Position numbers and translations under genes: made by a program. DNA of 64,000 bases from Candidatus Hermodarchaeum yapensis. GTDB taxonomy: Archaea; Asgardarchaeota; Hermodarchaeia; Hermodarchaeales; Hermodarchaeaceae. The notes beneath the pieces are model-generated. The model ran no database searches. It was not told the DNA's origin and was given only the letters and a program-made list of their open reading frames with translations. Location: NCBI GenBank assembly GCA_016840405.1, contig JAEOSK010000001.1, positions 40,952-104,951 on the forward strand. Direction: 5' to 3'. Shown in pieces: positions 1,015 through 57,385 of the stretch. Every line of letters begins with the position of its first letter. Within the stretch, counting starts at the first letter, position 1.

Positions 1015-1905
1015 ATGCAATTTGATCTGTTCAGTTTCCTCCTAACCTATTGGTGGATTGTCGTTATCCTCATCTTCATCATCATTCTACTCCTTATTGT
1101 CCCGTTCATCCGCGTCCTTAAAGAATACGAACGCGCAGTCATTTTCCGGTTGGGTCGTGCTGTTCCCGGGGTTAAAGGTCCCGGCGTCGTCTTCTTGCTA
1201 CCCATTCTTGATAAAATGGTCAAAGTTGACCTCCGCGAACAGTATTTCGAAATCGAACACCAACGCTGTATCACCAGCGACAACGCTCCCGTCGACATCG
1301 ACCTCCTCATTTACCACCGTGTCGTCAATGCTAGAGATAGCGTTCTCCGTATCCGTGGCTTTAGCGGCGCTGCCCTCGGCATCAGCCAAACCACACTCCG
1401 CGCCGTCGTTGGTGATATTACTCTCGACGATGTTCTGGCTAAACGCGAATACATCAACAGCGTGCTCCGCGAAAAACTCGACGAGAACACCGAACCATGG
1501 GGCGTCAAAGTCACCAAAGTGGAGATTCGTGAAATTCTGCCACCTACAAAGGTAAACGAGGCTATGATTATGCAGATGGAAGCAGAAAGGCGCCGTCGTG
1601 CAATGGTCACAGAAGCCGCTGGTAAACGCGAGTCTACCATTGCGGTTGCTGAAGGTGATAAACAGTCAGCCATCCTTCGGGCGGAAGGTGAGCGCCAATC
1701 TGCTATTCTTCGCGCCGAAGGTGAAGCGTTAGCCTTGCAGAAGATCTTTGATGTTGCTAAAGGCATCGATGAAAAAACCATGACCATCCAATACTTAGAA
1801 ACTCTACAAGCACTTGGTGCGAGTCCCAGTACGAAGTATGTGATTCCCATCGAGTTTACACAAATTATCACACCAATTCAGAAATTCTTGAAAGGCATCA
1901 AATAG
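1015..1905 (+). CDS. SPFH/band-7 family protein (stomatin/prohibitin-like) with N-terminal transmembrane helix
   Basis: N-terminal hydrophobic segment, conserved band-7 core (RVLKEYERAVIFRLGR..., EAERRRRA, AEGEALA coiled-coil tail). Confidence 0.8.
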   Translation: MQFDLFSFLLTYWWIVVILIFIIILLLIVPFIRVLKEYERAVIFRLGRAVPGVKGPGVVFLLPILDKMVKVDLREQYFEIEHQRCITSDNAPVDIDLLIYHRVVNARDSVLRIRGFSGAALGISQTTLRAVVGDITLDDVLAKREYINSVLREKLDENTEPWGVKVTKVEIREILPPTKVNEAMIMQMEAERRRRAMVTEAAGKRESTIAVAEGDKQSAILRAEGERQSAILRAEGEALALQKIFDVAKGIDEKTMTIQYLETLQALGASPSTKYVIPIEFTQIITPIQKFLKGIK

Positions 1906-1927
1906 TTAACTTATCGAGTGGGATGAA

Positions 1928-1949
1928 CCGGGTGGGTTCAGCTACCCGG
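1928..1949 (+). terminator. Stem-loop (ccgggt-N10-acccgg) 20 nt after the SPFH stop; possible terminator/structured 3' end
   Basis: 6-bp perfect inverted repeat read directly from sequence. Confidence 0.2.
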
Positions 1950-2041
1950 ATGCATTCTAATTCGAAATGCTATTTCACTATCTTCAAAAGCATGATTTTC
2001 GAAAATTTCGTGCGAATAAAACTACGTCGCGTTTTAGAGAT

Positions 2042-2353
2042 TTACTTAGCCGCAGCTTGTACTTTTTCCTTTACAGTTTCTCGGGTATCATTATCAAGGA
2101 CAGTAGTATAGGAGTCATAACCAGGAAGCCCTGTGGTGATTTCTTCAATTAACAGCATGAGGGCTTTTTCTGAGTCCATATCTCTCACTTCAAGACTAGC
2201 ATCATCAAAGATAAAACTAGCCTCCTTCCATTTGCCCTCTCCGACCTGATACATCATATAGAGATAATCATCGGTCATCAGAATAGCGGATTTAACCTTC
2301 CAGGCATCTTCCAAGATTTCAAGAGCTTTGTTTGCGTTCTCCTCTTTACTCAT
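2042..2353 (-). CDS. hypothetical protein (103 aa)
   Basis: compact ORF filling gap between SPFH and endA, no recognisable motif. Confidence 0.4.
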   Translation of the reverse strand: MSKEENANKALEILEDAWKVKSAILMTDDYLYMMYQVGEGKWKEASFIFDDASLEVRDMDSEKALMLLIEEITTGLPGYDSYTTVLDNDTRETVKEKVQAAAK

Positions 2354-2434
2354 GAGACATCACATCAGTGTAAGTGTACTCTCCATTGCCTCATAAAAAT
2401 ACGGTGGTAGAAAAATGGTAAACCTTCCCAGGTA

Positions 2435-2995
2435 TTAGGGTTTGATCCACGAAAATACGAAGTAGCGAACTTTCCTCGATTCTGTTGCAGTTGCCAACAC
2501 AAACCGTTTTCGTACAGAAGTTGCGAGTCGACCTGCGCGGACGACTTCAATGGCTGACACCTCATCGGATTTTGCAATGACTTCAACAATGAAGAGCGAA
2601 TGGTCAATACCTGGACCTTTACGATACACAGCAAAATCTGCCCCAAATTTCAAACCTGGACGAACTACGAATCCTCGCTTTCGAAGATCTTCATAGACTT
2701 GGTATTTCCGGCTGAATTCTTTATGTTGCTTCTCAGCAATCTCGATTAACTTCTTTTCTTTCAGGGGCGTTTTGGCATCTTCAGTGTAGACTTCAATAGT
2801 GCCTTTTCGTAGTAGATGAAGCGCCTCAAAAAAGGAAAGCTGTGAGGGGCGATCAAAATCAGAGGATTTGGGTTTTCGAATGCCAAGGGGCTTACCATAG
2901 AAACCCTTGCTGTAAAGAGTCGATCCATCTGCAGGGTTCCATACAACTACTTTGTTCTCAACAATTTGTGCAGAAATACGGGAAGTTTTTGGCAT
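2435..2995 (-). CDS. endA: tRNA-intron (splicing) endonuclease, short homotetramer-type
   Basis: C-terminal catalytic domain GFVVRPGLKFGADFAVY ... DHSLFIV ... SVRKRF (Tyr-His-Lys triad pattern), 186 aa like alpha4 enzymes. Confidence 0.75.
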   Translation of the reverse strand: MPKTSRISAQIVENKVVVWNPADGSTLYSKGFYGKPLGIRKPKSSDFDRPSQLSFFEALHLLRKGTIEVYTEDAKTPLKEKKLIEIAEKQHKEFSRKYQVYEDLRKRGFVVRPGLKFGADFAVYRKGPGIDHSLFIVEVIAKSDEVSAIEVVRAGRLATSVRKRFVLATATESRKVRYFVFSWIKP

Positions 2996-3056
2996 CGCAA
3001 CTCACAGTGGAATTCTTCTGGGTAATTTGAGATTACGGGATTTAAAAGGAGTCCGA

Positions 3057-3707
3057 TTAAACTCTGGCAATGGCAATTATTCGTACTGCGTCCGCTGCAT
3101 CCTCTGCTGCATCTGCTATTTCCTCGAGGTGTTGCCCTAAATCCTTTAGGCGCAACAGGACTTTGATATCGAGATTGGATGAGTACAAAAATTGGGTGAA
3201 TCCTCGATGAGCCGCATCTGCGTCACGTTCAGCTGCATCAACCTCAATCGCTAGCTCAACGGCTTTTTTAGAATTCTGTTCTAAGAACATAATTGATTGG
3301 CGCATCTTATACACTGCATCCATAAGAGCGTCGAGTAAGCCTTTGAAGTGTTCACGAATTTTTGCATCCGGTTGAAACTCTTCCAATCCTTGAAGATCCC
3401 ACGCAGATGCTTCACAAAGATCAGCGATATCATCAGTACGCATTACTAATCGGAAGTAATCGCTACGTCGAAGCATGGTTTCAACCACGGACAGTTCATC
3501 CAGAATAGTCCGTTTAACATTGTCAGCTTCTCGTTCAAGCATAGCTAGTTTGTTAAAGTGATCCTGCTGGCGTTCTTTTCTTCCATCCATCCAGTCTTCT
3601 ATCATAACACGAAGGGCTTTTGCAGCTCGTAGCACGATACCTGCATGATCCTGGGCTATAGCCATAGCTTTGTATTCTGCGCGATTATTAGATCGTTCCA
3701 AGGTCAC
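3057..3707 (-). CDS. DUF47/PhoU-like helical protein (TIGR00153-like)
   Basis: 216 aa all-helical, paired E-x-E-A-D and D-x-x-D motifs typical of PhoU/DUF47. Confidence 0.5.
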   Translation of the reverse strand: MTLERSNNRAEYKAMAIAQDHAGIVLRAAKALRVMIEDWMDGRKERQQDHFNKLAMLEREADNVKRTILDELSVVETMLRRSDYFRLVMRTDDIADLCEASAWDLQGLEEFQPDAKIREHFKGLLDALMDAVYKMRQSIMFLEQNSKKAVELAIEVDAAERDADAAHRGFTQFLYSSNLDIKVLLRLKDLGQHLEEIADAAEDAADAVRIIAIARV

Positions 3708-3771
3708 TTTCGTTCAACCTCTCGGCGTTGGTGGGTCAGGTAACCACCTATTAAAGCGTATCGAATCCGCT

Positions 3772-4635
3772 TCAAGACCCCCCAATTAAAATGAGAGGAA
3801 CTGTGAGCACCACTACAATGATTCCTAATGTTAAACAGAAAATCCACCAGGGTAGCTTCAGGGCATAATAACGAAATACAGCCAAGGCTCCTAATCCCGC
3901 AATAAAGGCCACCACCATCAATACAAGCAATATCGGAATCAAAGGCACAATCAGTAAGACATTTCCAAAGATAAGGTCAACGGCTACAACACCAAAAGCT
4001 GCGGGCACTCCTAATAGTAAGCTTAACCGGAGTGCTTCATCTCGCCTCACACCTCTAATTAAAAGCCATGTTAATGTCATTCCCGATCGGCTTATTCCGG
4101 GTAACACAGCTACACCTTGGAGTAGCCCTAATACAAAGGCCTCCCGAAGTGAGATACCTCCTAGTGTTAGGTCACCCTGTACGCCCGGCTGAAAATACAA
4201 GACAATACCAGTCACAATAAGGAGAATTCCAACAAGGAGGGTCACGAAGCTTCCCAGAAGAACCGTTACCAGGCTTCGTAGTAAGAAATACAAAGGCAAA
4301 GCGACTATCACGGTTCCAATAGTACCCGCGACAACAAAGGCAAATAGTGGACCAAATAATTTCCTTGATTCTTTCTCGGCAGTTGGGATTTCTTCTTTTG
4401 GAGGTCGGATTTGTATGACAAGGGGGCAAAAGATGTCATGACGATAAAAGGCAATCACGGTGAAGGCGGTTCCAAGGTGTAACCAGAAAATCACCGAGAG
4501 CGCGAATTCAGGGGTGAAATGATAGATGTTTGCGGCAACAAGCAATATCTGACCTTCACTGCTCACAGGCAGATATTCTAGCAATCCTTGTAATAGTGCT
4601 AAAATCAGTAACGGGATAATCATTAGCGCGTTCAC
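3772..4635 (-). CDS. uppP: undecaprenyl-diphosphatase (BacA/UppP family) polytopic membrane protein
   Basis: GISRSGMTLT motif (GxSRSGxT), 8 predicted TM helices. Confidence 0.75.
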   Translation of the reverse strand: MNALMIIPLLILALLQGLLEYLPVSSEGQILLVAANIYHFTPEFALSVIFWLHLGTAFTVIAFYRHDIFCPLVIQIRPPKEEIPTAEKESRKLFGPLFAFVVAGTIGTVIVALPLYFLLRSLVTVLLGSFVTLLVGILLIVTGIVLYFQPGVQGDLTLGGISLREAFVLGLLQGVAVLPGISRSGMTLTWLLIRGVRRDEALRLSLLLGVPAAFGVVAVDLIFGNVLLIVPLIPILLVLMVVAFIAGLGALAVFRYYALKLPWWIFCLTLGIIVVVLTVPLILIGGS

Positions 4636-4810
4636 CGTTATTGTCTCCGATGGTATGTCTCTCGCCTATAAGGATTACCTGAGAAAAGGCGCCCATTATC
4701 GAGTATCCATAAAAGACTTGAAGTTAGTTTCTAGAATCCCTAATTCGGCTTTCGCGAGCTGGCGAATCGCTTAAAGCCTCCCGTTGTAAGAAGCCTTTCG
4801 AGGACTAGCA

Positions 4811-5173
4811 GTGGATTCAGATCAGGACTTTCCATCCGTTGAAAGCGAGAAGTTAACGCTCCTCCGACAAATGGTTCAAGATGATACTGTAAAACGAGAG
4901 CTCTTACGCTGTCTCAGCGATGGAATATGGCATACTACCTCGGAGTTGGCACGGTTCGCGCGCGAAGCAAACCCTGTAATTGGTTTAGTGACTGTGGGTA
5001 CAATTCTAACTCGTATGCAAGAGCAATTGGGTGAACATTTTCTTGAGCAAATGGTGCAAAAAGCCGAAGAAGGCGTTTCCTCGTGGCGGATTGGTGTGGA
5101 ATGGTTAGATGTCGTGAATGAAGTGCTAAAACAGAAGGGGAAACCTACTAAACCCTCAATATTCGATGAATAG
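4811..5173 (+). CDS. hypothetical protein (120 aa), possible winged-helix
   Basis: ORF only. Confidence 0.4.
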   Translation: MDSDQDFPSVESEKLTLLRQMVQDDTVKRELLRCLSDGIWHTTSELARFAREANPVIGLVTVGTILTRMQEQLGEHFLEQMVQKAEEGVSSWRIGVEWLDVVNEVLKQKGKPTKPSIFDE

Positions 5174-5326
5174 CGCCAAACTTTCTGAAATTGACGATGA
5201 TTTTTCGTTCGATTTGTATAAAAACACGGTCTAAGAGAGCATTCATCAGGAATAGCCTTTTAATCGGTGGAAAACTTAAGTAGGAGCAGTGAGAACGGTT
5301 ATTTTAGTAAAATAACGGTGTGACCC

Positions 5327-5566
5327 ATGCCAAGAGAAAAAACGACACGCATAGTTCCCCTTGCCCCAATTGATCGCCTCATCCGCAAAGCTGGTGCAGA
5401 ACGAGTCAGTGAACACGCTGCCACGGAACTCGGCGAAGTCCTTGAGGAACTCGGAACCGAAATTGCCTCCATCGCCAAAGAACTCTCTGAATTTGCTGGA
5501 CGGAAAACCGTTACCCGCAAAGATATCCGACTGGCCTACAAGCAATGGAAAAAAACTCGCCGGTAA
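5327..5566 (+). CDS. archaeal histone (HMf-like histone fold) with short basic N- and C-terminal extensions
   Basis: LAPIDRLIRKAGAERVS...LEELGTEIASIAKELSEFAGRKTVTRKDIRLA matches HMfB almost position by position; extra MPREKTTRIV N-tail and KQWKKTRR C-tail. Confidence 0.8.
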   Translation: MPREKTTRIVPLAPIDRLIRKAGAERVSEHAATELGEVLEELGTEIASIAKELSEFAGRKTVTRKDIRLAYKQWKKTRR

Positions 5567-5658
5567 CATAGCCAGGACAACGAACAATCTCAAGGCTTAA
5601 AATAAGTTCCATGACACAATCATATTCTGTACCCTAATTTTTAGTAGGTGACAACATC

Positions 5659-6870
5659 ATGCCACGTCGTTCACTTCGAAACAACCTAATCACCGAGCGA
5701 ACAAAGACGATTCGTTATGCCATTCGCGATGTCGTCGTCACGGCCAAACACCTGGAGGCGAAGGGGAAAAAAATTACTTACCTCAACATCGGCGACCCAA
5801 TCGTCTATGACTTTGAAACACCCCCATTCTTAGTTGAAGCGTTTTGCGATGCTGCAAAACAAGGTCATAATGGGTATTCGGCTTCGGCTGGTATTCCAGA
5901 ATTTCGAGAAGCCGTGGTTGATAAGGAAAAACGCATTAACAAGATTTCAATTGGAGCTGCGGATGTTATTGCTACTGCAGGGATTTCTGAAGGCATTCAG
6001 ATGATGATGGCGGCACTTGTTAGTCCCGGCTCTGAGGTCTTAGTTCCTGGACCAACCTATCCTCCCTATTTGGCATTTGTCCGCTTCTTTGGTGGAACAG
6101 CACAAACCTATCGCTGTATCGAAGAAGAAGGTTGGCGACCAGATCTTGATGACATTCGTGCAAAAATCACCGAAAACACCGCTGCGATGGTCCTCATCAA
6201 TCCAAATAACCCCACAGGCGCTGTATATCCATCTAAGACGGTTCAAGCCCTAGTTGACATTGCTGGTGAATTTGGCATCCCCTTGATCTCGGATGAAGTC
6301 TATGATAGGCTTGTTTATGATTTGGTTCCAACAAGCACTGCAGCTCTCGCAAAGGATGTTCCCGTAATCGGTTTCAACGGACTTTCAAAGGTGTATCTGG
6401 TTCCTGGCTGGCGTATTGGTTACATGTATTTCCACCATCCAAACCAGGACCTCGCAGAACTCAAAGAACACATCCTCAAACAAGCCCGCATCCGTATTTG
6501 CACCAATGCCCCCGCTCAATACGCTGCCTCTATCGGTCTTCGCGAATCTGATACCTACCTTAAAGATGTCATATCCCGGTTACAAGACCGTAGAGATCTC
6601 GTTTGGAAACGACTTAACGAAATCGATGGAATATCAACATCAAAACCAGAAGGTTCCTTCTACATTTTTCCCAGCATTGATTTGCAGAACCGCTGGTCAA
6701 CCGATGAAGAATTTGTAATGGCGCTTCTTAAGGAAACAGGAGTACTTGTCGTTCACGGATCTGGCTTTGACCCAGTATTTGGTTCAGACCATTTTCGATT
6801 AGTCTTCCTTGCTCCCCCACCTATTCTCAATTCTGCCCTTGATGCAATACAAAAATTCGTTGAAAGCTAA
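5659..6870 (+). CDS. PLP-dependent aminotransferase class I/II (aspartate/alanine aminotransferase family)
   Basis: NPNNPTGAVY, SKVYLVPGWRIGY (PLP-lysine region), 403 aa. Confidence 0.8.
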   Translation: MPRRSLRNNLITERTKTIRYAIRDVVVTAKHLEAKGKKITYLNIGDPIVYDFETPPFLVEAFCDAAKQGHNGYSASAGIPEFREAVVDKEKRINKISIGAADVIATAGISEGIQMMMAALVSPGSEVLVPGPTYPPYLAFVRFFGGTAQTYRCIEEEGWRPDLDDIRAKITENTAAMVLINPNNPTGAVYPSKTVQALVDIAGEFGIPLISDEVYDRLVYDLVPTSTAALAKDVPVIGFNGLSKVYLVPGWRIGYMYFHHPNQDLAELKEHILKQARIRICTNAPAQYAASIGLRESDTYLKDVISRLQDRRDLVWKRLNEIDGISTSKPEGSFYIFPSIDLQNRWSTDEEFVMALLKETGVLVVHGSGFDPVFGSDHFRLVFLAPPPILNSALDAIQKFVES

Positions 6871-6899
6871 TACTCAATCTGCACAAAACTAAGTATCGG

Positions 6900-7235
6900 T
6901 TAGTCTTCCTCTTCGGGTTCTGGTGGTTCAGTAAATTCAGTTGGTTCTGTTGCTTCTGCTGGTCTAGCAATATTCATTCGTGCTTCTTGAACCATTCGCC
7001 CAATCGTCCCAAACATCCGCTCGGGGGAAAACATCGGCATCGATACGCTGTTTTGGATAGCATTGAAGATTTCATTATGATTCAAATCGGTCGTCAGGCG
7101 AGTAGTACCGATTTCAGTTGGACCACGAAAAATCCGAACGGCCCATTGATCTGCCACACGTCCGAGTTCTACTAAATATGACGTCATGGGGAGGAGGTAT
7201 TTTTGGGTGATGGGTTGATATTCTTGGGACATCAA
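6900..7235 (-). CDS. hypothetical protein with acidic Pro/Glu C-terminal tail; co-oriented downstream of coiled-coil gene
   Basis: ORF only. Confidence 0.45.
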   Translation of the reverse strand: MMSQEYQPITQKYLLPMTSYLVELGRVADQWAVRIFRGPTEIGTTRLTTDLNHNEIFNAIQNSVSMPMFSPERMFGTIGRMVQEARMNIARPAEATEPTEFTEPPEPEEED

Positions 7236-7317
7236 AAGCCGCCTCTATTTATCGTATCCATCGACATGAGCTAAAAAGCCTTTGTGCCCGGTTTTTCTAG
7301 CACTTCAGAGCTGAATC

Positions 7318-8547
7318 TTAAGCAAGAAGGGCTTGAACTTCGTCAGGGAACTCTATTTCGATATCATTGCGAACCAACTTGGAAATTCCAGATTCAAGGC
7401 GTTTTTGCAGGGTTTTTAACCGCGCAGTAATCCGGGTGACTTGTTCCTCTATATGCGCGATTTCAGATTTCACATCCCGATGCTCCCACTCAGCACGTTC
7501 CAAGGATTTCTCCAAATCTCGACGCTCATCCGACGACACCGCACTCTCTAGCTCATCTTTCCGAGACGCAAGGTTGGAAAACCGCAACCGATACTCATCT
7601 AAGTCCCCTTTCTCAACTACCCCGGTCTTCCGATCCAACACTTTTCGATTCAAACTCGCCTTAAAATTCATCTTACCATTTTGAATAGCCTCCGCCAACG
7701 CCATCAATCCTGCTTTCAACCGCTCAAGATCATCTGTATCACGCTGGAAAGCCGTCCACGGATCCTTCGAATATGCATCGGCCCCCTCGCCCGCTACTGA
7801 GGAGATCATTATCGACTGGCCTGCCGCCTGACTTACCTTCTTAAACGGTTTCTTGAGAAAATTCAACTGGTTCGTCACAATCATTCGAATACTATCAATT
7901 TCCTTGCGGATTCCATCGATCTCCGCCAAGCCAGAATCCATCCTGAACTGTTCAATCCCCTCCTGGTGTTCCTCGACCCTCCCCGCGGTCTGCTCCTTCT
8001 GTTCCCTTAACTTCGCCAATTGTTCAGATAATGCCAACACGTGTCGAGACCGCTCATCAATCTCCTCTACTTCCTCACCAACCAGTTCCACCTGCTTCGG
8101 TAATTTTTCCTTTTCCCAATTTTTCTTAATCTTCTGATATCCCTGTCCAATCGACCTAAATTGGTAATCCAACTCTTTGATAATCTTCTTATGCACACGC
8201 GGTAACCGCGGAATATACCGCCGCCCAGCATGCGTCGTATCCTGCAAATAATCCTCTAAATCATCCAGCAATTCCTCTACCGAAGAATAGGTAATCTCCT
8301 CTGGAAACACCATGTCCTTTGCACTACTTTTCAAACGGCTCGCTAACTTCTGAGCCGAACCGGGCACCGTCAACTCCCCATCAATCACTACCTCTTCCAA
8401 TAGCTCATCCGACGTCTCTACCGTTTTCACCAACGCCTCATCAATCCGGTCCAACTGCTTCTGAATATCCAACCGATAATTCGAAAGCAACTCACTGGTC
8501 CGCTCAGCAAACCACTCCGGCAACTCATGCACGCCAATCACAGTCAA
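7318..8547 (-). CDS. coiled-coil protein (409 aa), partner gene of longin-GTPase; strongly G/T-ending codon usage
   Basis: long heptad-rich K/E/L sequence; divergent from 8527 gene. Confidence 0.6.
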   Translation of the reverse strand: MTVIGVHELPEWFAERTSELLSNYRLDIQKQLDRIDEALVKTVETSDELLEEVVIDGELTVPGSAQKLASRLKSSAKDMVFPEEITYSSVEELLDDLEDYLQDTTHAGRRYIPRLPRVHKKIIKELDYQFRSIGQGYQKIKKNWEKEKLPKQVELVGEEVEEIDERSRHVLALSEQLAKLREQKEQTAGRVEEHQEGIEQFRMDSGLAEIDGIRKEIDSIRMIVTNQLNFLKKPFKKVSQAAGQSIMISSVAGEGADAYSKDPWTAFQRDTDDLERLKAGLMALAEAIQNGKMNFKASLNRKVLDRKTGVVEKGDLDEYRLRFSNLASRKDELESAVSSDERRDLEKSLERAEWEHRDVKSEIAHIEEQVTRITARLKTLQKRLESGISKLVRNDIEIEFPDEVQALLA

Positions 8548-9600
8548 TCTTCACAGCCTCGCTTCACAAAACAGAACCACCTACTAAAAAAACTACCTCA
8601 AGAGAATCCTAATCACCACCCCGCCCAAGCAGCTTGCACGAAAAGCTTATCAACGCTCTTCCATAGTCAAGAATGCAACGCTAAAATCTTATGCTGTGGT
8701 GAGCGGGCAATTATCCATAATGCAATTCTTTTCAACATCAGCCCCCGCAAAGACGAAGTCGGGCTCCAAGCCAACGTCATCTTCCACAAACAATACTGGC
8801 GCGTCCCCCTCAGCGACAACATGATCGGCGAATTCTTACGCGCCTACAAAGAATTCATGAGCCACGTCCAAAGCACCGACCTCCCCGCCCTCCCAATCCA
8901 CATCCAAGGCACCAAATTCATCTTCACCAACATCGAAGACCTCCTCCTCGTCTTCATCAGCCACATGCAAGACGACGACAGCCGCGTCAACGAAAAAGTC
9001 AAAACCGCCCTCCGCATGCTCGTCGGCAAATACGGCACCGAACACATCAAAGACATCGCCACCAACAACAACACCCAACCCATCGAAGACCTCATCGACA
9101 ACTACATCATGAGCAAACTCAAAGTCAGCCTCGTCGGCGAAGGCGGCGTCGGCAAAACCACCCTCCTCCGCCTCCTCAAAGGCACCGCCCCACCCACCGA
9201 ATACGTCCCCACCATCGCCCTCAGCATCGAACAAATCGAAGCCACCCGCTACGGCACCTACCAAATCATCCTTTGGGACTTCGCCGGCCAAGAACGCTTC
9301 CGCCGCCTCTGGACCATCTACTTCCGCGGCTCAGATATTGTATTTATTATTACGGACTCCACCCTCAACAACGTCATCGCCACCAAAGAAATCCTCGACG
9401 TCATCCGCAAAGACGCCCCCGGCGTCCCCGTCTGGGCCATCGCCAACAAACAAGACCTCGAAGGCGCCCTCTCCCCCGAACTCGTAGAACGAATTTTAGG
9501 TATTCCAGCATTTGGTATGGTCGCCATCGACCAAGCCCGCAAAGAAGAGATGCTCCAAATTTTGCTGGATGCAGTCGATCGCTACATCGGGACGGAGTAA
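8527..9600 (+). CDS. small Ras/Arf-like GTPase fused to N-terminal longin/roadblock-like domain; first ~60 aa low-complexity, true start uncertain
   Basis: G1 GEGGVGKTT, G3 WDFAGQERF, G4 ANKQDL; N-domain aligns with paralog at 32828; extreme C-ending codon usage. Confidence 0.75.
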   Translation: MHANHSQSSQPRFTKQNHLLKKLPQENPNHHPAQAACTKSLSTLFHSQECNAKILCCGERAIIHNAILFNISPRKDEVGLQANVIFHKQYWRVPLSDNMIGEFLRAYKEFMSHVQSTDLPALPIHIQGTKFIFTNIEDLLLVFISHMQDDDSRVNEKVKTALRMLVGKYGTEHIKDIATNNNTQPIEDLIDNYIMSKLKVSLVGEGGVGKTTLLRLLKGTAPPTEYVPTIALSIEQIEATRYGTYQIILWDFAGQERFRRLWTIYFRGSDIVFIITDSTLNNVIATKEILDVIRKDAPGVPVWAIANKQDLEGALSPELVERILGIPAFGMVAIDQARKEEMLQILLDAVDRYIGTE

Positions 9601-13195: not shown

Positions 13196-13816
13196 TCACT
13201 TTTTTAATTTAACTTGATTTTTTAACGTTTCAAGGTCAGTGGCAGATGTATAAATAATTGGTTTAAAACCAAGATGTTGCCAGAAGGCTTCAGCTTCTTT
13301 GTTCCCGAGAACATACCGTAGGCTGATATGACTAACATTTTCTACTTCAAAGTACTTGCAGAGTTTGTGTATCAGCTGAGTGCCTATTCCATGTCGTCTA
13401 TAGTTTTCCAATACAAAGATCATGCCGATTATCCCCGCTTCATTAGGTTCGTATTCAATTCGTTTAAGGATCTGTCCATAGGCAAAGCCCACGATGTTAT
13501 TATCCTGTTCGGCAACCAGAACAAGACTCGTGTCGTTGGTGAGCAAGTGGCTGACATCGTGGACCAATTTCTGCCGCCCAGCCTTGGTGATTCGCCATAT
13601 AAGTGGATTAGACTGCTCTACGTGCTGTTGTAATTTTATTCGTAAATTCAAAATTTTCTCCTGATCAGCAGTTGTCGCTCTTCGAACAAGCATTCCAAAT
13701 TCTCTCCTTATTTGTCCAAACCCTTGTTGTATACATCGGTTGGTGTGGACTCTCATTTCTGTTTCTTTGGGGTGGGATTCTGCCTTTCGCACCTTCAACG
13801 TGAATCTTCTTTTCAT
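13196..13816 (-). CDS. GNAT family N-acetyltransferase
   Basis: RRHGIGTQLI acetyl-CoA binding motif. Confidence 0.7.
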   Translation of the reverse strand: MKRRFTLKVRKAESHPKETEMRVHTNRCIQQGFGQIRREFGMLVRRATTADQEKILNLRIKLQQHVEQSNPLIWRITKAGRQKLVHDVSHLLTNDTSLVLVAEQDNNIVGFAYGQILKRIEYEPNEAGIIGMIFVLENYRRHGIGTQLIHKLCKYFEVENVSHISLRYVLGNKEAEAFWQHLGFKPIIYTSATDLETLKNQVKLKK

Positions 13817-15297
13817 ACATCTTCTATCCCCTCAATTCGCGCTAGAGTCCATCTTCCCTTATCTGTCAGATCATAATATTGTCTTTTGGATTTTCGATAG
13901 GTTTGAACGGAGCGTGTTCGTGTGATAAGACCAGTGCGTATCAGCTCGTTAAGGTGTTGATACACACTTGATACTGAAACCTTGACGCCTGTTTCTGCAA
14001 TTAGTGTCTTCCAAATAGCATAGCCATATGATTCATTTCTTTGGAGAATCTTAAGGATGTGGAGTTTAGTTCCGCCCAATTTTGTTGTATACTTTCGTTT
14101 CTCAACGCGACCAAGAAGATGTTCTATATTGGTATGGCCTTTTGCAATGGTTTGAGCAATTTCTGGGTATTTTAATCCCATCCCAGTAATTACACAGATG
14201 ATTTTATCTCCTGTGTCAATTGAACCTTCTCGAAGTATTTGATGTAAAGCTGCAATAGTTGCAGCTGATGCGGGTTCAGCAAAAACACCTTCTAAACTAG
14301 CTAATGAACTGACGGCATCCAAAATTGCACTATCTGAAACTGAAACAGTAAAGCCCTCCGATTCACGAATTGCATCTAAAGCAAGTTTTCCACAAGACGG
14401 GTTTTTCATTCCAATATCTATAGCTATCGTCGATGCCTTGGTTGATGGTTCAACGGATTTACTGCCCTTTTGAAAGGCAGTAACAATGGGGGCACATCCT
14501 TTTGCTTGTACGCCGATGAGTTTTGGTGGTTCCTTTTCCATCCATCCGAGCAATTGTAATTCTTTGATTGCTTTCCAAATCATTGAAAGATGACCACCAT
14601 TTCCCATGGGCACAAGAATCCAGTCTGGGGGAATCCAATCGAGTTGTTCACAAATCTCATAGCCTGTGGTTTTCACACCCTCAAGAAAGTAAGGGCTATG
14701 ACCAATTATTGTGTGTGCATTCGGGGCTCTTTCTATCGTTCGTGCTTCTCCCTCCTCGCGGTCTTTCACTATTTCTAATTCTGGTTGATAAGCGATTATT
14801 TGGTAGAGTTTGCCAATGTCGACTCTTTGTGGCACAAACACATGACTTTTCATTCCTGCTCTAGCAGCATAAGCAACTACCGAGGCTGCAAGGTTGCCTG
14901 ATGAGCCACATGAAACGGCTTTGAAACCAAGTTCTTTTGCTTTTGATATTTCAACACTTGTTCCGCGATCAATGAAAGCCCCTGTAGGATTGGTGGTTTC
15001 ATCCTTTAGGTAGAGCTGTCGTAAACCCAGTTTTTGGGCGAGGCGGTCGCATTCATGCAGAAATGTTCCTCCCTCTCCTAGAGAAACAATGTTCCGCCGA
15101 TCCTGTACTGGAAGCAGTTCAAAATACTTCCAAACACCTGGTTCTCTGTCAGCTAATGATGAAACATCAATCTGATTATGGATTGCTTCAAGATCATAAA
15201 CAACCTCGAACAAACCACCACATTGAGGGCACCCATGTATTGGAGGCGACGGGCGTTCCGTTTCGTAGGCGCATTCTGAACATCGGAGCTTTGACAT
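13813..15297 (-). CDS. Threonine-synthase-like PLP-fold domain (N-terminal Zn ribbon) lacking the PLP-lysine, fused to C-terminal PadR-type winged-helix DNA-binding domain
   Basis: CSEC...CPQCGG ribbon; YLKDETTNPTGAFIDRG where canonical SFKDRG lysine is Ile (codon ATT at 14971-14973 on minus strand); C-term LHILKILQRNESYGYAIWK...VYQHLNELIRTGLI = PadR HTH. Confidence 0.75.
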   Translation of the reverse strand: MSKLRCSECAYETERPSPPIHGCPQCGGLFEVVYDLEAIHNQIDVSSLADREPGVWKYFELLPVQDRRNIVSLGEGGTFLHECDRLAQKLGLRQLYLKDETTNPTGAFIDRGTSVEISKAKELGFKAVSCGSSGNLAASVVAYAARAGMKSHVFVPQRVDIGKLYQIIAYQPELEIVKDREEGEARTIERAPNAHTIIGHSPYFLEGVKTTGYEICEQLDWIPPDWILVPMGNGGHLSMIWKAIKELQLLGWMEKEPPKLIGVQAKGCAPIVTAFQKGSKSVEPSTKASTIAIDIGMKNPSCGKLALDAIRESEGFTVSVSDSAILDAVSSLASLEGVFAEPASAATIAALHQILREGSIDTGDKIICVITGMGLKYPEIAQTIAKGHTNIEHLLGRVEKRKYTTKLGGTKLHILKILQRNESYGYAIWKTLIAETGVKVSVSSVYQHLNELIRTGLITRTRSVQTYRKSKRQYYDLTDKGRWTLARIEGIEDV

Positions 15298-53002: not shown

Positions 53003-53548
53003 GTGGAAGACGAAGGCATCATGCTCAAACTCGTCATCGCAGGCGAAGGCGGTGTGGGCAAAACCACAATGGTCCGACGATACGTCGAAGGCACATACCA
53101 CGATTCAATTCTTACCGTAGGCGCTGCTTTTGCGGCAAAGCGATTAATTGTGAATAATAGTAGGGAGCAGACGGGTGTTAAATTACAGATTTGGGATTTT
53201 GGTGGGGAGAAGCGGTTTCGGTTTTTATTGCCGAAGTTTTGCCTTGGGGCGCGTGGGGCGATGCTTGCCTTTGATTTGAATCGGTTTAGTACGTTTTTGA
53301 AGCTTGATCAGTGGCTTGAGCTTATCCGGGATAACACCGAAGAGATTCCCGTCGTGTTAATCGGGATGAAGGCGGATTTGCAGCGGGCGATTGAACAAAA
53401 GGAAGTTGTCAATTTCGCGAAGACCCATAACTTGAAAGCATATTTTGAGACGAGTTCAAAGGATGATTTGAATGTCACTCCTGCCTTTGAGTATATTGCA
53501 AAAGAAATGCTGGAGTATGTCCAGCAACGCGTCAATAAATCCGCATAG
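53003..53548 (+). CDS. stand-alone small Ras/Rab-like GTPase with divergent G3 (DFGGE) and G4 (MKAD) motifs
   Basis: G1 GEGGVGKTT, G3 WDFGGEKRF (Gln replaced by Glu), G4 GMKADL (Asn replaced by Met). Confidence 0.7.
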   Translation: MEDEGIMLKLVIAGEGGVGKTTMVRRYVEGTYHDSILTVGAAFAAKRLIVNNSREQTGVKLQIWDFGGEKRFRFLLPKFCLGARGAMLAFDLNRFSTFLKLDQWLELIRDNTEEIPVVLIGMKADLQRAIEQKEVVNFAKTHNLKAYFETSSKDDLNVTPAFEYIAKEMLEYVQQRVNKSA

Positions 53549-53694: not shown

Positions 53695-54888
53695 ACCGGG
53701 CTCCGTCGCACCAACACAGTAACCCTCACACCCTCCGCCTCCCAACACCTACACCTCCTGCAGCTGGCCGAAGAGTGCGCCAGACTCTGGAACGAACTCA
53801 CCTACTGACGCCGCCAAGCATTTTTCCGTGGAAAAATCACCTGGGAGTGGCAGGACCTCTACGACGCCTACAAAGGTGATGTGGGCTCGGCCACCGCCCA
53901 ACAGATTGAACGCAAGAACAGTGAGGCCTGGCGTTCATTCTTCGCCCTCCTCTGATTAAAAACGAAGGGACGACTTCCATCCCATATCAACTGCGTAGGT
54001 CCACCGGGCTACTGGAAGTATCGTCGCACCAATACACGGAAGCTCATCATTATCTTTCGCTGTGATTCCTATCGATTTGACGAGGGCATATTATATCTCC
54101 CCAAAAAATTGACTGTTAAATGGCAGGGGAAGCCCAAATGGGTGGGTTGGACCAAACAGGGTCAGCTAACCATCCACTATGATAATGTTACTGGCAAGTG
54201 GTATGCCCGTCAACCAGTGGAGGTTGAACCTCCCCATCAACCGCTCTCGCATCGGAGAGCCTTTGTTGGCCTGGGCGTGATTAATTTGCTGACCGTTGCC
54301 CTGGATGGTGCGTGGCAAACGTTGGTCTACAGTGGGCGTTCGGTCTTGGCGGATTGGTGGTATCTCTCTCATCGGATTGATCGGTTGAAGTCTCTAGCAA
54401 AGACGATAAACCATCGGAAATCAACGCATCGGATCCGTCGGTTATTTCGTCGTCGTCTGCGGTTACGCCAGTATGTGAATACGGTGGTTCGTCGGGCGGT
54501 AGCTGATTTGTGGGCGCACGGTGTGTCGCAGCTGGTGGTAGGGGATCTCACTGGGATTCTGGCGGTAAAAAGTGGTGGGCGGAAGGCTCATGCGATGACA
54601 CATAATTGCTGGAGTCATCGGTATCTTATGCAACGGATCACGGAGGTGGCAGAAGAATATGGTATTGTGGTGGAACGGGTGGATGAGCGGGGCACTTCAA
54701 GTAAGTGTCCACGCTGTCGGTCGAAGCGAGTAACACGACTAGGTCGCCTGTTCAAATGCCAGGAGTGTAGATTAGAAGCTCATCGAGATGGTGTGGGCGT
54801 AGTCAACATAGGGCTTGCTCAAGGCGCAGCGTTCCCTGGGGAAGTCGTTAACGGGGCAGTGGCATGCCCTTTGGAGGTCAGTGGATGA
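53695..54888 (+). pseudogene. tnpB: TnpB (IS200/IS605 OrfB)-like gene interrupted by in-frame TGA codons (53806, 53953) with degenerate RuvC motifs
   Basis: LAEECARLWNELTY*RRQAFF...EAWRSFFALL*LKTKG...PPGYWK... C-term CPRCRSK...CQECRLEAHRDGVGVVNI zinc finger/RuvC-III; ORF track only calls 54109-54888 from TTG. Confidence 0.55.
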
Positions 54889-56689: not shown

Positions 56690-57385
56690 GTGCCTTGTAT
56701 GGTAGTACATGCAGTGTGGATAATCGATACTAGTGGAATCCCACTTTACCATAAGGCATATTCTCCCCTCGAGTTTGATCCAACGCTATTTAGTAGTTTT
56801 TTCTCTTCTCTAGTGCATTTCCAAAGCGAAATGATGGGACGCCAATTACAGGATATCACCTTCGAAGATCTCTCCTTTAGTTACATTGTGGATGCTGGCC
56901 TCGTATTTCTAGCAAGTGTGAAAAAAGATGCTTCTACTGGGAAGCTGCTAGAGTCCCTCCGAGACGTTTTCTTCAAGTTCTTCAAAGACGATTTAATTCT
57001 CCTTAGTACAATGCTGCGAACGAGTCCAAGGGCTCGCGAACTGCTCCAAAACTTTGAGCTGGAAGTCGACACACTCGTCGGGTATACTCCTCAAAAGGAG
57101 CCTGTTCCTGTTCGGGTTACGGCCATTCCACGGCTTTTACATAAAGACTCACCAATTCGGCAAGATCTGTTGCGACGCTTTGGTATGAAGGCGATTTTGA
57201 TAGTGATGTTAGCGGATGGAACTTATCGTATAAATGACATTTCAACGGCTTTGGATATTCCAGCAAAAGAAGTTGAAGAAATTGTAGGGCATGCACAACG
57301 ACGTGGCTACTTGAAAGTCGTTTCTGCCTATCAATCTGAAGAACTTGCACAACCTGAACCCGGGGAACAACTTCCTGAACCCTAG
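56690..57385 (+). CDS. longin/roadblock-like N-terminal domain protein with C-terminal winged-helix-like domain
   Basis: AVWIIDTSGIPLYHKAY...LVFLASV pattern shared with the other longin-like domains in this window. Confidence 0.4.
   Translation: MPCMVVHAVWIIDTSGIPLYHKAYSPLEFDPTLFSSFFSSLVHFQSEMMGRQLQDITFEDLSFSYIVDAGLVFLASVKKDASTGKLLESLRDVFFKFFKDDLILLSTMLRTSPRARELLQNFELEVDTLVGYTPQKEPVPVRVTAIPRLLHKDSPIRQDLLRRFGMKAILIVMLADGTYRINDISTALDIPAKEVEEIVGHAQRRGYLKVVSAYQSEELAQPEPGEQLPEP

Follow-up and report, generated by a model that had tools for sequence, protein, structure and literature searches.

We analyzed a 64,000-nt window of Candidatus Hermodarchaeum yapensis (assembly GCA_016840405.1, contig JAEOSK010000001.1, positions 40,952 to 104,951 of the forward strand) that encodes two small GTPases with an N-terminal longin domain, A3 at locus A and B2 at locus B, together with two longin proteins at locus B, B1 and B3, whose relatives we refer to as the B family. 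We found that the recurrent neighbor of longin-GTPases is a B-family longin and not a coiled-coil protein, as a first-pass annotation of this DNA had proposed. Conserved adjacency across distant lineages holds for the B family and not for A2 and A1, the other genes of locus A, which adjoin the GTPase in one clade. The gene context suggests, with somewhat better than even confidence on our part, that the B protein and the GTPase are physical partners.

Adjacency of B-family genes and longin-GTPases

Using a profile of the GTPase, we retrieved 80 loci, one genome per species, 78 of which hold a longin-GTPase. A B gene lies within 2 kb in 29 of the 78, none lies within 2 kb though both flanks are present in 28, and a flank is short in the remaining 21. 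The pairing was accordingly seen at 29/57 evaluable loci, in metagenome-assembled genomes (MAGs) labeled Thor-, Hermod-, Hod- and Promethearchaeota and Promethearchaeia. B genes also adjoin the GTPase in Asgardarchaeia (L005) and Baldrarchaeota (L042), both of which stand outside this count.

The form of the pairing varies among lineages. The Hermod-like clade has the order B1-B2-B3 with gaps of 0–200 nt, the GTPase is followed by B after 4 nt in Asgardarchaeia L005 and in the metagenome locus L099, and the two genes overlap in L042. At every evaluable thorarchaeal locus of a ~600-aa, acidic-tailed GTPase subfamily, B lies ~470 nt upstream. Another subfamily of ~345-aa longin-GTPases, whose N-domain matches the A3 longin (hhalign 91%), has one convergent B gene 50–100 nt downstream and others nearby. 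Altogether the pairing spans at least four GTPase subfamilies and three arrangements (0–16 nt co-directional, ~470 nt upstream, and ~60–100 nt convergent). Since the same longin family accompanies four GTPase subfamilies in several lineages and three arrangements, we argue for a functional link.

A reciprocal scan starting from B3 recovered a GTPase immediately upstream in all close relatives and in the 43%-identical L099. The B-family scan of metagenome contigs was run with a narrow alignment and reached chiefly B3-like members and a P0219-like group. The 306-aa tandem GTPases of Thorarchaeota (L006 and L033) have no B-family neighbor. At these loci two paralogous longin-GTPases stand in tandem (L006, 6001–7948; L033, 1523–3692), a recurrent tandem duplication.

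The open reading frames (ORFs) reported by the first-pass annotation are present at both loci where it placed them. The features are listed below, with coordinates taken from mechanical ORFs of the window and corrected starts given separately:

6900–7235, minus strand: A1, 111 aa, with an acidic Pro/Glu tail; directly after A2 throughout one clade.
7318–8547, minus strand: A2, 409 aa, helical and conserved, with one heptad segment; divergent from A3.
8698–8702, plus strand: Shine-Dalgarno-like GGTGA, 7 nt upstream of the ATT at 8710.
8710–9600, plus strand: A3, longin-GTPase of 296 aa with a probable ATT start (mechanical ORF 8527–9600, 357 aa).
8710–9108, plus strand: longin domain of A3, aa 1–133.
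9112–9597, plus strand: G domain of A3, aa 135–296.
9601–31786, ~22 kb: segment separating A3 from B1, with unrelated genes (flavoprotein, PALP enzyme, radical SAM, EamA, helicase and three beta-lactamase-family paralogs).
31787–32806, plus strand: B1, 339 aa with a probable ATC start (mechanical ORF 31889–32806); NPRL2-like longin, Cys-rich segment and weak TFIIB-repeat/helix-turn-helix (HTH) part.
32828–33697, plus strand: B2, longin-GTPase of 289 aa, paralog of A3.
33895–35493, plus strand: B3, 532 aa.
33895–34266, plus strand: longin domain of B3, aa 1–124.
34267–35004, plus strand: helical/winged-helix region of B3, aa 125–370.
35005–35493, plus strand: Glu/Lys-rich tail of B3, aa 371–532.

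At the second locus, the reported partnership of a paralogous longin-GTPase (B2) with an adjoining longin-type protein (B3) stood, but the B3 tail contains no coiled coil. The gene before B2 had been overlooked as a third longin-type protein, B1, whose true start lies at ~31787 and not at 31889.

Loci A and B are parts of one ancestral A3-B1-B2-B3 cluster, split in the window by ~22 kb of unrelated genes. In Hermodarchaeota YT1_014 (L007, the same locus as L037), A1 and A2 are followed contiguously by A3, B1, B2, B3 and RNase HII; the A3-B1 and B1-B2 gaps are at most 71 nt, with B1 71 nt downstream of the A3 ortholog. A3 and B1 are 4.8 kb apart in L003 and ~22 kb apart in the window, where the outer flanks are as in L007/L037. 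These common flanks comprise the histone gene (5327–5566 of the window), aminotransferase, A1 and A2 on one side and RNase HII (35513–36178) on the other. The contiguity in L007/L037, the same flanks, and the 4.8-kb gap in L003 together lead us to a single ancestral cluster.

The intervening 22 kb hold ordinary enzymes and transporters. A PALP enzyme (1.7e-66) carries a C-terminal PadR winged helix (3.5e-14) at 13813–15297 (minus strand), an enzyme-regulator fusion. Just upstream of B1, at 27758–31630 (plus strand), are three tandem beta-lactamase/transpeptidase-like paralogs of 403, 397 and 391 aa (Pfam Beta-lactamase, 1e-25 to 1e-29).

Domains and start codons of the GTPases and B proteins

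The product of the 8527–9600 ORF, taken by the first-pass annotation as a small GTPase, is indeed one, but the conserved protein begins at nt 8710 and not at 8527. Residues 196–327 of that product match Pfam Arf (2e-18), Roc (2e-17) and Ras (1e-14); for A3 and B2 together these matches fall between 1e-14 and 1e-21, and NCBIfam small_GTP was matched as well. The two proteins are paralogs (43% identity, E 1e-84) over both the N-domain and the G domain. Every one of 891 homologs of A3 comes from an Asgard MAG (labels Promethearchaeota, Hermod-, Thor- and Lokiarchaeota), the closest being 'Promethearchaeota' isolates (89% identity) and Hermodarchaeota YT1_014 (71%). Their NCBI label is 'ADP-ribosylation factor-like protein'. 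Together with the histone gene, these homologs assign the window to an Asgard archaeon of a Hermodarchaeota-like clade.

Because Foldseek with the whole A3 model returned G-domain matches only, we judged the N-domain by its AlphaFold2 (AF2) topology and by profile searches. The model was built on a 53-sequence alignment (predicted local distance difference test score, pLDDT, 85; predicted template modeling score, pTM, 0.68). Residues 1–133 were modeled, with E for strand and H for helix, as E2–12, E19–28, H36–52, E63–75, E78–84, H90–108, H110–118 and H123–133, in the longin order b-b-a-b-b-b-a-a with no N-terminal helix. A roadblock domain, by the fold definitions that we used for the two folds (PMC10933270), opens with an N-terminal helix (a-b-b-a-b-b-b(-a)), and a roadblock/LC7 fold was ruled out for A3 and B3 alike, as both models open with a strand at residue 2–4. 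Of the earlier description as longin/roadblock-like, then, the longin half held. The N-domain profile matched the AP-3 mu1 longin over the whole domain (E 0.004; 1–109 to 1–104) and AP sigma subunits at 0.08–0.3. Pfam Clat_adaptor_s and Fuz_longin_1 gave weak matches for some members of the N-domain family, among them Clat_adaptor_s for aa 1–94 of B2. These matches are weak, yet all are to longin families.

The G domain of A3 has the full set of Ras-superfamily motifs: G1 GEGGVGKT, the switch-I T in PT(I)A, G3 WDFAGQE, G4 NKQD and G5 VA(I)D. G1–G5 are invariant across 53 family members, and the Pfam Arf/Roc/Ras matches are above cutoffs. The P-loop and G3 motifs (GxGGVGKT, WDFAGQE) we take to be Ras/Rab-like in appearance. 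A PDB sequence search gave Arf2/Arf3/Arf1/Arl8 as the best matches (6e-16 to 4e-15), with Rac and Rab slightly weaker, and the top Foldseek match was the Asgard GerdArfR1 (8oum), with TM-scores to targets of 0.75–0.82. Weak SRPRB matches were found in Pfam. Grouping with MglA-like families had been named as an outcome that would count against the first-pass annotation; the best matches are to the Arf family, and MglA is absent from the 60 best PDB sequence matches and the 50 best structural matches.

In Arf and ArfR proteins, an amphipathic helix at the N-terminus lies against the G domain until the interswitch toggle releases it (10.1101/2024.02.28.582541). No such helix was found in the AF2 model of A3, which has the 133-aa longin domain instead. 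Nor did we find a Rag-type C-terminal roadblock domain, A3 ending ~20 residues past G5. Against the Pfam Gtr1_RagA gathering score of 22 bits, B2 scored 26.8 and A3 18.7, with Arf and Roc far higher for both. Taken together, A3 and B2 consist of an N-terminal longin of the adaptor sigma/mu type joined to a Ras-superfamily G domain that is complete and nearest to Arf. On these grounds they may be filed as Arf-like/Rag-like Asgard GTPases.

The fusion itself is already known, and A3 and B2 are additional members. Longin-fused small GTPases have been reported in Asgard archaea since 2016 (Klinger et al., as cited in PMC4917890) and appear in Liu et al. 2021 (10.1101/2020.10.19.343400) and in the AF2 survey of Tran et al. 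2024 (PMC10933270). A3 and B2 share with these published Arf-like/Rag-like proteins their taxon, an ambiguous Arf/Rag affinity and the NCBI label, and show no essential difference. As the first-pass annotation had it, the GTPase is fused to a longin-fold domain, and its family is confined to Asgard archaea. In the available parts of the published accounts, a conserved neighbor gene is not described.

The starts of A3 and B1 required correction. Similarity of A3 to B2 and to all orthologs begins at residue 62 of the mechanical ORF, at nt 8710 (IIHNAI...). The preceding 61 codons extend over the start of A2, which is transcribed divergently, and orthologs in L003, L008 and L009 have in-frame stops within the matching stretch; in L003 one stop lies two codons ahead of the ATT. 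ATG 8527 was ruled out as the start on account of this overlap and these stops. Between 8527 and 8821 there is no ATG, GTG or TTG. ATG 8821, called as the start for many 259-aa database orthologs, was ruled out by the 39 conserved codons that precede it (8710–8826), which encode strands b1–b2 of the AF2 model; in these codons synonymous differences between orthologs are about as many as non-synonymous ones. The GGTGA found 7 nt ahead of the ATT in the window is kept in L003, L008 and L009, and other A3 orthologs have GTG at a position where the window has GAG. On the strength of the onset of homology, the upstream stops in orthologs, the conserved codons, and the GGTGA, we place the probable start of A3 at ATT 8710.

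Similarly, the conserved N-terminus of B1 (IPRGLVLSHWD..., compared with MPHGLSVCRWD... in B3) begins at ATC 31787, with AAGGTG 7 nt ahead of it (window 31774–31789). A stop stands three codons ahead of the ATT or ATC in the B1 orthologs of L024, L025 and L044, and all five B1-group sequences that are complete at the N-terminus in our alignment read IPRGL where B3-type sequences have MPxGL. Several orthologs of A3 and B1 with such stops 2–3 codons upstream contain no ATG, GTG or TTG there. The probable start of B1 is therefore ATC 31787, and A3 and B1 appear to use AUU/AUC start codons. Such starts lead to wrong gene-caller boundaries for A3 orthologs, which have been shortened to 259 aa or lengthened to 357 aa.

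With its start corrected, B1 is homologous to B3 over the first ~165 residues (BLASTP 1e-8; hhalign 98%, E 2e-13), and the two differ beyond. In B1 the longin is followed by a Cys-rich stretch and then by a weak TFIIB-repeat/HTH match (Pfam 0.0018; NCBIfam TFIIB 4e-5). Proteins of the B family are ~370 aa in size. We modeled B3 with AF2 on a 20-sequence alignment (pLDDT 72 overall and ~85 in residues 1–124; pTM 0.38). Its N-terminal domain follows the longin order (E4–11, E15–22, H30–43, E48–53, E59–69, E73–82, H87–103, H110–124), and aa 125–370 form helices and a beta hairpin (303–323). The best Foldseek matches were Npr2/NPRL2 chains of SEAC/GATOR1 (2.7e-3; chain 8adl_S was confirmed to be Npr2). 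Further matches included NPRL3-sized chains, DENND10, Lst4, C9orf72-SMCR8, a Lokiarchaeal roadblock-longin protein, Sec22b and Ykt6, and the list also contains ArsR/MarR winged helices. The C-terminal region of B3 gave weak sequence matches to ArsR/SmtB/MarR/TFIIE winged helices, below family thresholds. A common subfamily for the B-type longin and the longin of the GTPase was ruled out, as the two have no detectable relation (hhalign probability 0.2%).

The B family carries the signature MPxGL..[RK]W[DN]x[KR]xG...[YF]P, ASYYTG and DEDPxxYE, with W10 conserved in 35/36 sequences, D/N11 in 36/36, G15 in 31/36 and P23 in 36/36. The W-D pair thus stands four residues ahead of G15, as it does in C9orf72, a longin-type subunit of a GTPase-activating protein (GAP). 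The W33-D34...G38 spacing of C9orf72 (PMC12290439) equals this W-D-x3-G.

The tail of B3 (aa 371–532) is lineage-specific and is not a heptad coiled coil. It is 67% Glu+Lys and of low complexity, no heptad signal was found in it by a crude heptad score, and it is absent from the relatives in L005 (365 aa) and Thorarchaeota (~385–400 aa). It is coded by imperfect tandem repeats with periods of 21 and 66 nt (window 35195–35466), and close B3 orthologs vary in tail length, with totals of 415–553 aa.

Several related proteins were observed alongside. A giant B-module fusion is encoded in L086 by a 2664-codon frame (1166–9157), which has a B-family domain at its end and is separated by 460 nt from the gene of a ~600-aa GTPase downstream. 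The GTPase-B pair of Asgardarchaeia L005 is directly followed by a 445-aa TrmB-family protein (8051–9388, minus strand) with an N-terminus that is longin-like by eye. At its N-terminus, a 231-aa protein encoded elsewhere in the window (56690–57385, plus strand) has a longin-like domain akin to that of the longin-GTPases (hhalign 83%, E 1e-5); its C-terminal stretch resembles a helix-turn-helix. A Rab/Ras-like GTPase gene (53003–53548, plus strand; Pfam Ras 6.5e-35) lies 3 kb upstream of it, and the 231-aa protein may be another longin and winged-helix protein near a GTPase. A truncated TnpB-like gene at 54109–54888 (plus strand; Pfam OrfB_IS605 3e-13, Cas12f1-like TNB 1.3e-16) is an IS200/IS605-type remnant.

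A putative two-longin partnership

GATOR1 is built on an NPRL2-NPRL3 longin heterodimer and is a GAP for RagA; FLCN-FNIP and C9orf72-SMCR8 are its relatives. The three eukaryotic longin GAP complexes each have two longin domains, contributed by two subunits (PMC12290439), and longin and roadblock domains serve as dimeric platforms that bind small GTPases as guanine nucleotide exchange factors (GEFs) or GAPs (PMC10933270). By analogy, we lean slightly toward the B-type longin protein being the cognate regulator or effector of the adjacent longin-GTPase through a two-longin contact with the G domain. The B longin would pair with the longin fused to the GTPase to form a heterodimeric platform, such that the W-D...G loop of the B protein would face the nucleotide pocket or G domain. 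This contact could either speed hydrolysis, as a GAP does, or read the GTP/GDP state, as in effector binding, and the winged-helix or TFIIB-like parts would deliver the output, possibly by binding DNA. We regard GAP-like catalysis by the B protein as a possibility at best, and rather doubtful. Similarly tentative is the idea that a longin-GTPase and its NPRL2-like longin/winged-helix neighbor make up an archaeal two-longin regulatory module, a prokaryotic forerunner of Rag-GATOR1, FLCN-FNIP and C9orf72-SMCR8.

Like the subunits of these complexes, B3 has a longin followed by winged-helix-like C-terminal parts and is of about the size of NPRL2 (370 versus 380 aa). In structure it matches Npr2/NPRL2 best, the W-D-x3-G spacing is that of C9orf72, and two longin domains would be available for a platform beside the G domain. 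The archaeal arrangement differs in that the GTPase carries one of the longins as a fused domain and has no Rag-type C-terminal roadblock, and there is no DEPDC5, DENN or WDR41 component.

Liu et al. (2021, Fig. 5c, 10.1101/2020.10.19.343400) described Asgard NPRL2-like longins with a small C-terminal domain, reported from the majority of Thor MAGs and from some of Loki. Compared by description only, the B family is probably this family or near it. 'FLCN/SMCR8-type' Asgard longins have been described as well, and the Heimdall examples carry a GP motif and an Arg finger (PMC12290439). The B family shares the NPRL2/FLCN-like longin with both sets and was found at all evaluable Thor loci of the long GTPase, but it lacks the GP motif of the Heimdall proteins and does not appear to conserve their Arg finger.

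Several observations weigh against a GATOR1-like partnership. HMMER found no sequence-level similarity of the B family to NPRL2 or FLCN. GAP-type longins are marked by a GP motif where strand b2 begins (PMC12290439), and in the 36 B-family sequences the residue after G15 is L, T, A or V and never P. An Arg in the b4–b5 loop is present in B3 (R70, R72), L005, Thor and B1-type sequences, but the loop is shortened and without Arg in the L047 type, so that the residue does not appear to be conserved across the family; the equivalence of the B3 loop Arg to NPRL2 R78 is itself a by-eye alignment. The Foldseek E-values of B3 are weak, 2.7e-3 being the best, and come from a model of moderate quality. 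The winged helices resemble those of DNA-binding regulators, which would fit a role in transcription equally well. With regard to gene context, the P0219-like B subfamily (~600 aa; L101–L107) has no GTPase nearby, 28/57 evaluable longin-GTPase loci have no B gene within 2 kb, and A3 and B1, 22 kb apart in the window, are also apart in L001. Given that the pairing is missing at about half of the loci and that A3 and B1 are so far apart here, tight linkage is not required.

We consider it unlikely, though well worth weighing, that B1 and B3 are DNA-binding transcription regulators in which the longin serves as a sensor or docking site and the GTPase acts upstream as a switch or is itself a target of regulation, with neither a GAP/GEF substrate role for the GTPase nor a membrane link. 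The only sequence-level matches of the B3 C-terminal region are the ArsR/SmtB/MarR/TFIIE winged helices, Foldseek lists ArsR/MarR proteins, B1 has its TFIIB-repeat/HTH match, and the L005 pair adjoins the TrmB-family protein with a similar N-terminus. All of the winged-helix and TFIIB matches are under family thresholds, however, and the most conserved residues of the B family lie in the b1–b2 loop of the longin and not in a helix-turn-helix. The C-terminal winged-helix-like domains of NPRL2 and NPRL3, moreover, are not known to bind DNA. In favor of a transcriptional role, again, NPRL2-like longins are reported to be fused to two-component signaling domains in Asgard archaea (Liu et al., 10.1101/2020.10.19.343400). 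This alternative is compatible with a partnership of B protein and GTPase, and differs from the two-longin regulator that we favor only on the output.

Two other systems join a domain of this superfamily to a small GTPase. The longin-like SRX domain of SR-alpha binds the Arf-like GTPase SR-beta, and Arf1 binds the longins of adaptor protein (AP) sigma/mu subunits. A3 likewise combines a longin fold, with a profile matching AP-3 mu/sigma, and an Arf-like G domain. It differs in that the two are covalently fused and have no signal recognition particle (SRP) GTPase or adaptor trunk in their context, and the similarity is weak. MglA-MglB comprises a bacterial Ras-like GTPase and a roadblock GAP, and is similarly a prokaryotic small GTPase with a partner of the roadblock/longin superfamily encoded alongside. 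The partner here is a longin and not a roadblock, G3 retains both its Asp and its Gln (WDFAGQE), and Arf-family proteins give the best matches.

Other readings of the two loci, and candidate pairs

At locus A, the small acidic-tailed protein of the first-pass annotation is A1, which gave no family match in Pfam or NCBIfam. A2 is helical and conserved and contains numerous invariant motifs of a non-heptad kind. The label of coiled-coil protein is apt for a single heptad segment at aa 339–399, where the crude heptad score was reached by 0/100 shuffles, but not for the rest of A2, nor for the heptad-free tail of B3. A word-indexed search retrieved 64 relatives of A2, all at least 50% identical, and an exhaustive profile search extended the family to 174 representatives of ~400–430 aa that are collinear over their full length. 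Since these come from MAGs labeled Hod-, Hel- and Promethearchaeota, A2 belongs to an Asgard-wide family. A common origin of A2 and B3 was ruled out, as BLASTP found no sequence similarity between them.

In an iterative hidden Markov model (HMM) search of all ORFs of 89 fetched loci, A2 and A1 turned up beside A3 orthologs and nowhere else, at 12 loci of one Hermod-like clade, at which histone, aminotransferase, BacA, PhoU and tRNA endonuclease genes are syntenic too. Because this wider neighborhood is kept at the same 12 loci, the A2-A3 adjacency indicates no more than shared ancestry. No A2 homolog was found within 10 kb of ~70 other longin-GTPase loci. Conversely, at five loci of distant A2 homologs (L090–L093 and L110) there is no adjacent GTPase, and the neighbors are housekeeping genes such as those for deoxyhypusine synthase, tRNA methyltransferases and D-tyrosyl-tRNA deacylase. 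A2 and A1 are thus lineage-specific neighbors that stand outside the conserved module. At one of the five loci (L092, Helarchaeota; 5018–7224), a 313-aa protein with a B-type longin (E 1e-20) and a coiled coil is encoded 42 nt upstream of the distant A2 homolog, and this is the only hint that links the A2 family to B-type longins outside the clade of the window.

These results bear on the original proposal, in which A2, with A1, is an effector or tether of A3 and the coiled-coil tail of B3 acts likewise for B2, in the manner of golgin/Rab or Arl tethering. The order of A1, A2 and the divergent A3 is kept at the 12 loci while A2 identity drops to ~50%, the heptad segment in A2 is genuine, and the L092 arrangement is consistent with such a role. 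We nevertheless consider tethering improbable. A long heptad coiled coil that makes up most of the protein, as expected of a tether or golgin, was found neither in A2, with its one segment, nor in the B3 tail, a low-complexity Glu/Lys stretch that has no heptads and is missing from other lineages. The adjacency at the 12 loci is explained by shared ancestry, none of the ~70 other longin-GTPase loci has an A2 homolog within 10 kb, and 0/5 distant A2 homologs adjoin a GTPase. The claimed recurrence of GTPases with long coiled-coil tethers thus fails, A2 and B3 being unrelated, and so does the neighborhood conservation on which the proposal for locus A had been staked, the A2-A3 pairing being confined to one clade.

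It is likewise improbable that the B proteins and GTPases have no functional link and are adjacent by chance and local duplication: Asgard genomes do have scores of longin/roadblock proteins and ~100 GTPases each (PMC4917890; 10.1101/2020.10.19.343400), MK-D1 GTPases are generally outside operons with longin genes (Tran et al., PMC10933270), and about half of our loci lack the pairing, but the neighbor is always one specific longin family and not any longin, and it turns up with four GTPase subfamilies, across several lineages at the level of phylum or class and in three arrangements, often at 0–16 nt or with overlapping stop and start.

Asgard GTPases are hard to match to regulators, as they are rarely in operons with them (PMC10933270), and which GTPases the GAP-type Asgard longins serve is an open question (PMC12290439). 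The usable outcome of our analysis is a specific NPRL2-like longin/winged-helix family beside longin-GTPases in several Asgard lineages. The non-canonical start codons matter for annotation, as several database orthologs are without the first two longin strands. The interest of the loci rests on these starts and on the candidate GTPase/longin pairs that can be taken into binding and GTPase assays, namely B2 with B3 or B1, A3 with B1, and the related pairs of Thor, Baldr and Asgardarchaeia. If true, the two-longin module would name concrete GTPase/longin pairs for the question of which GTPases these longins serve.

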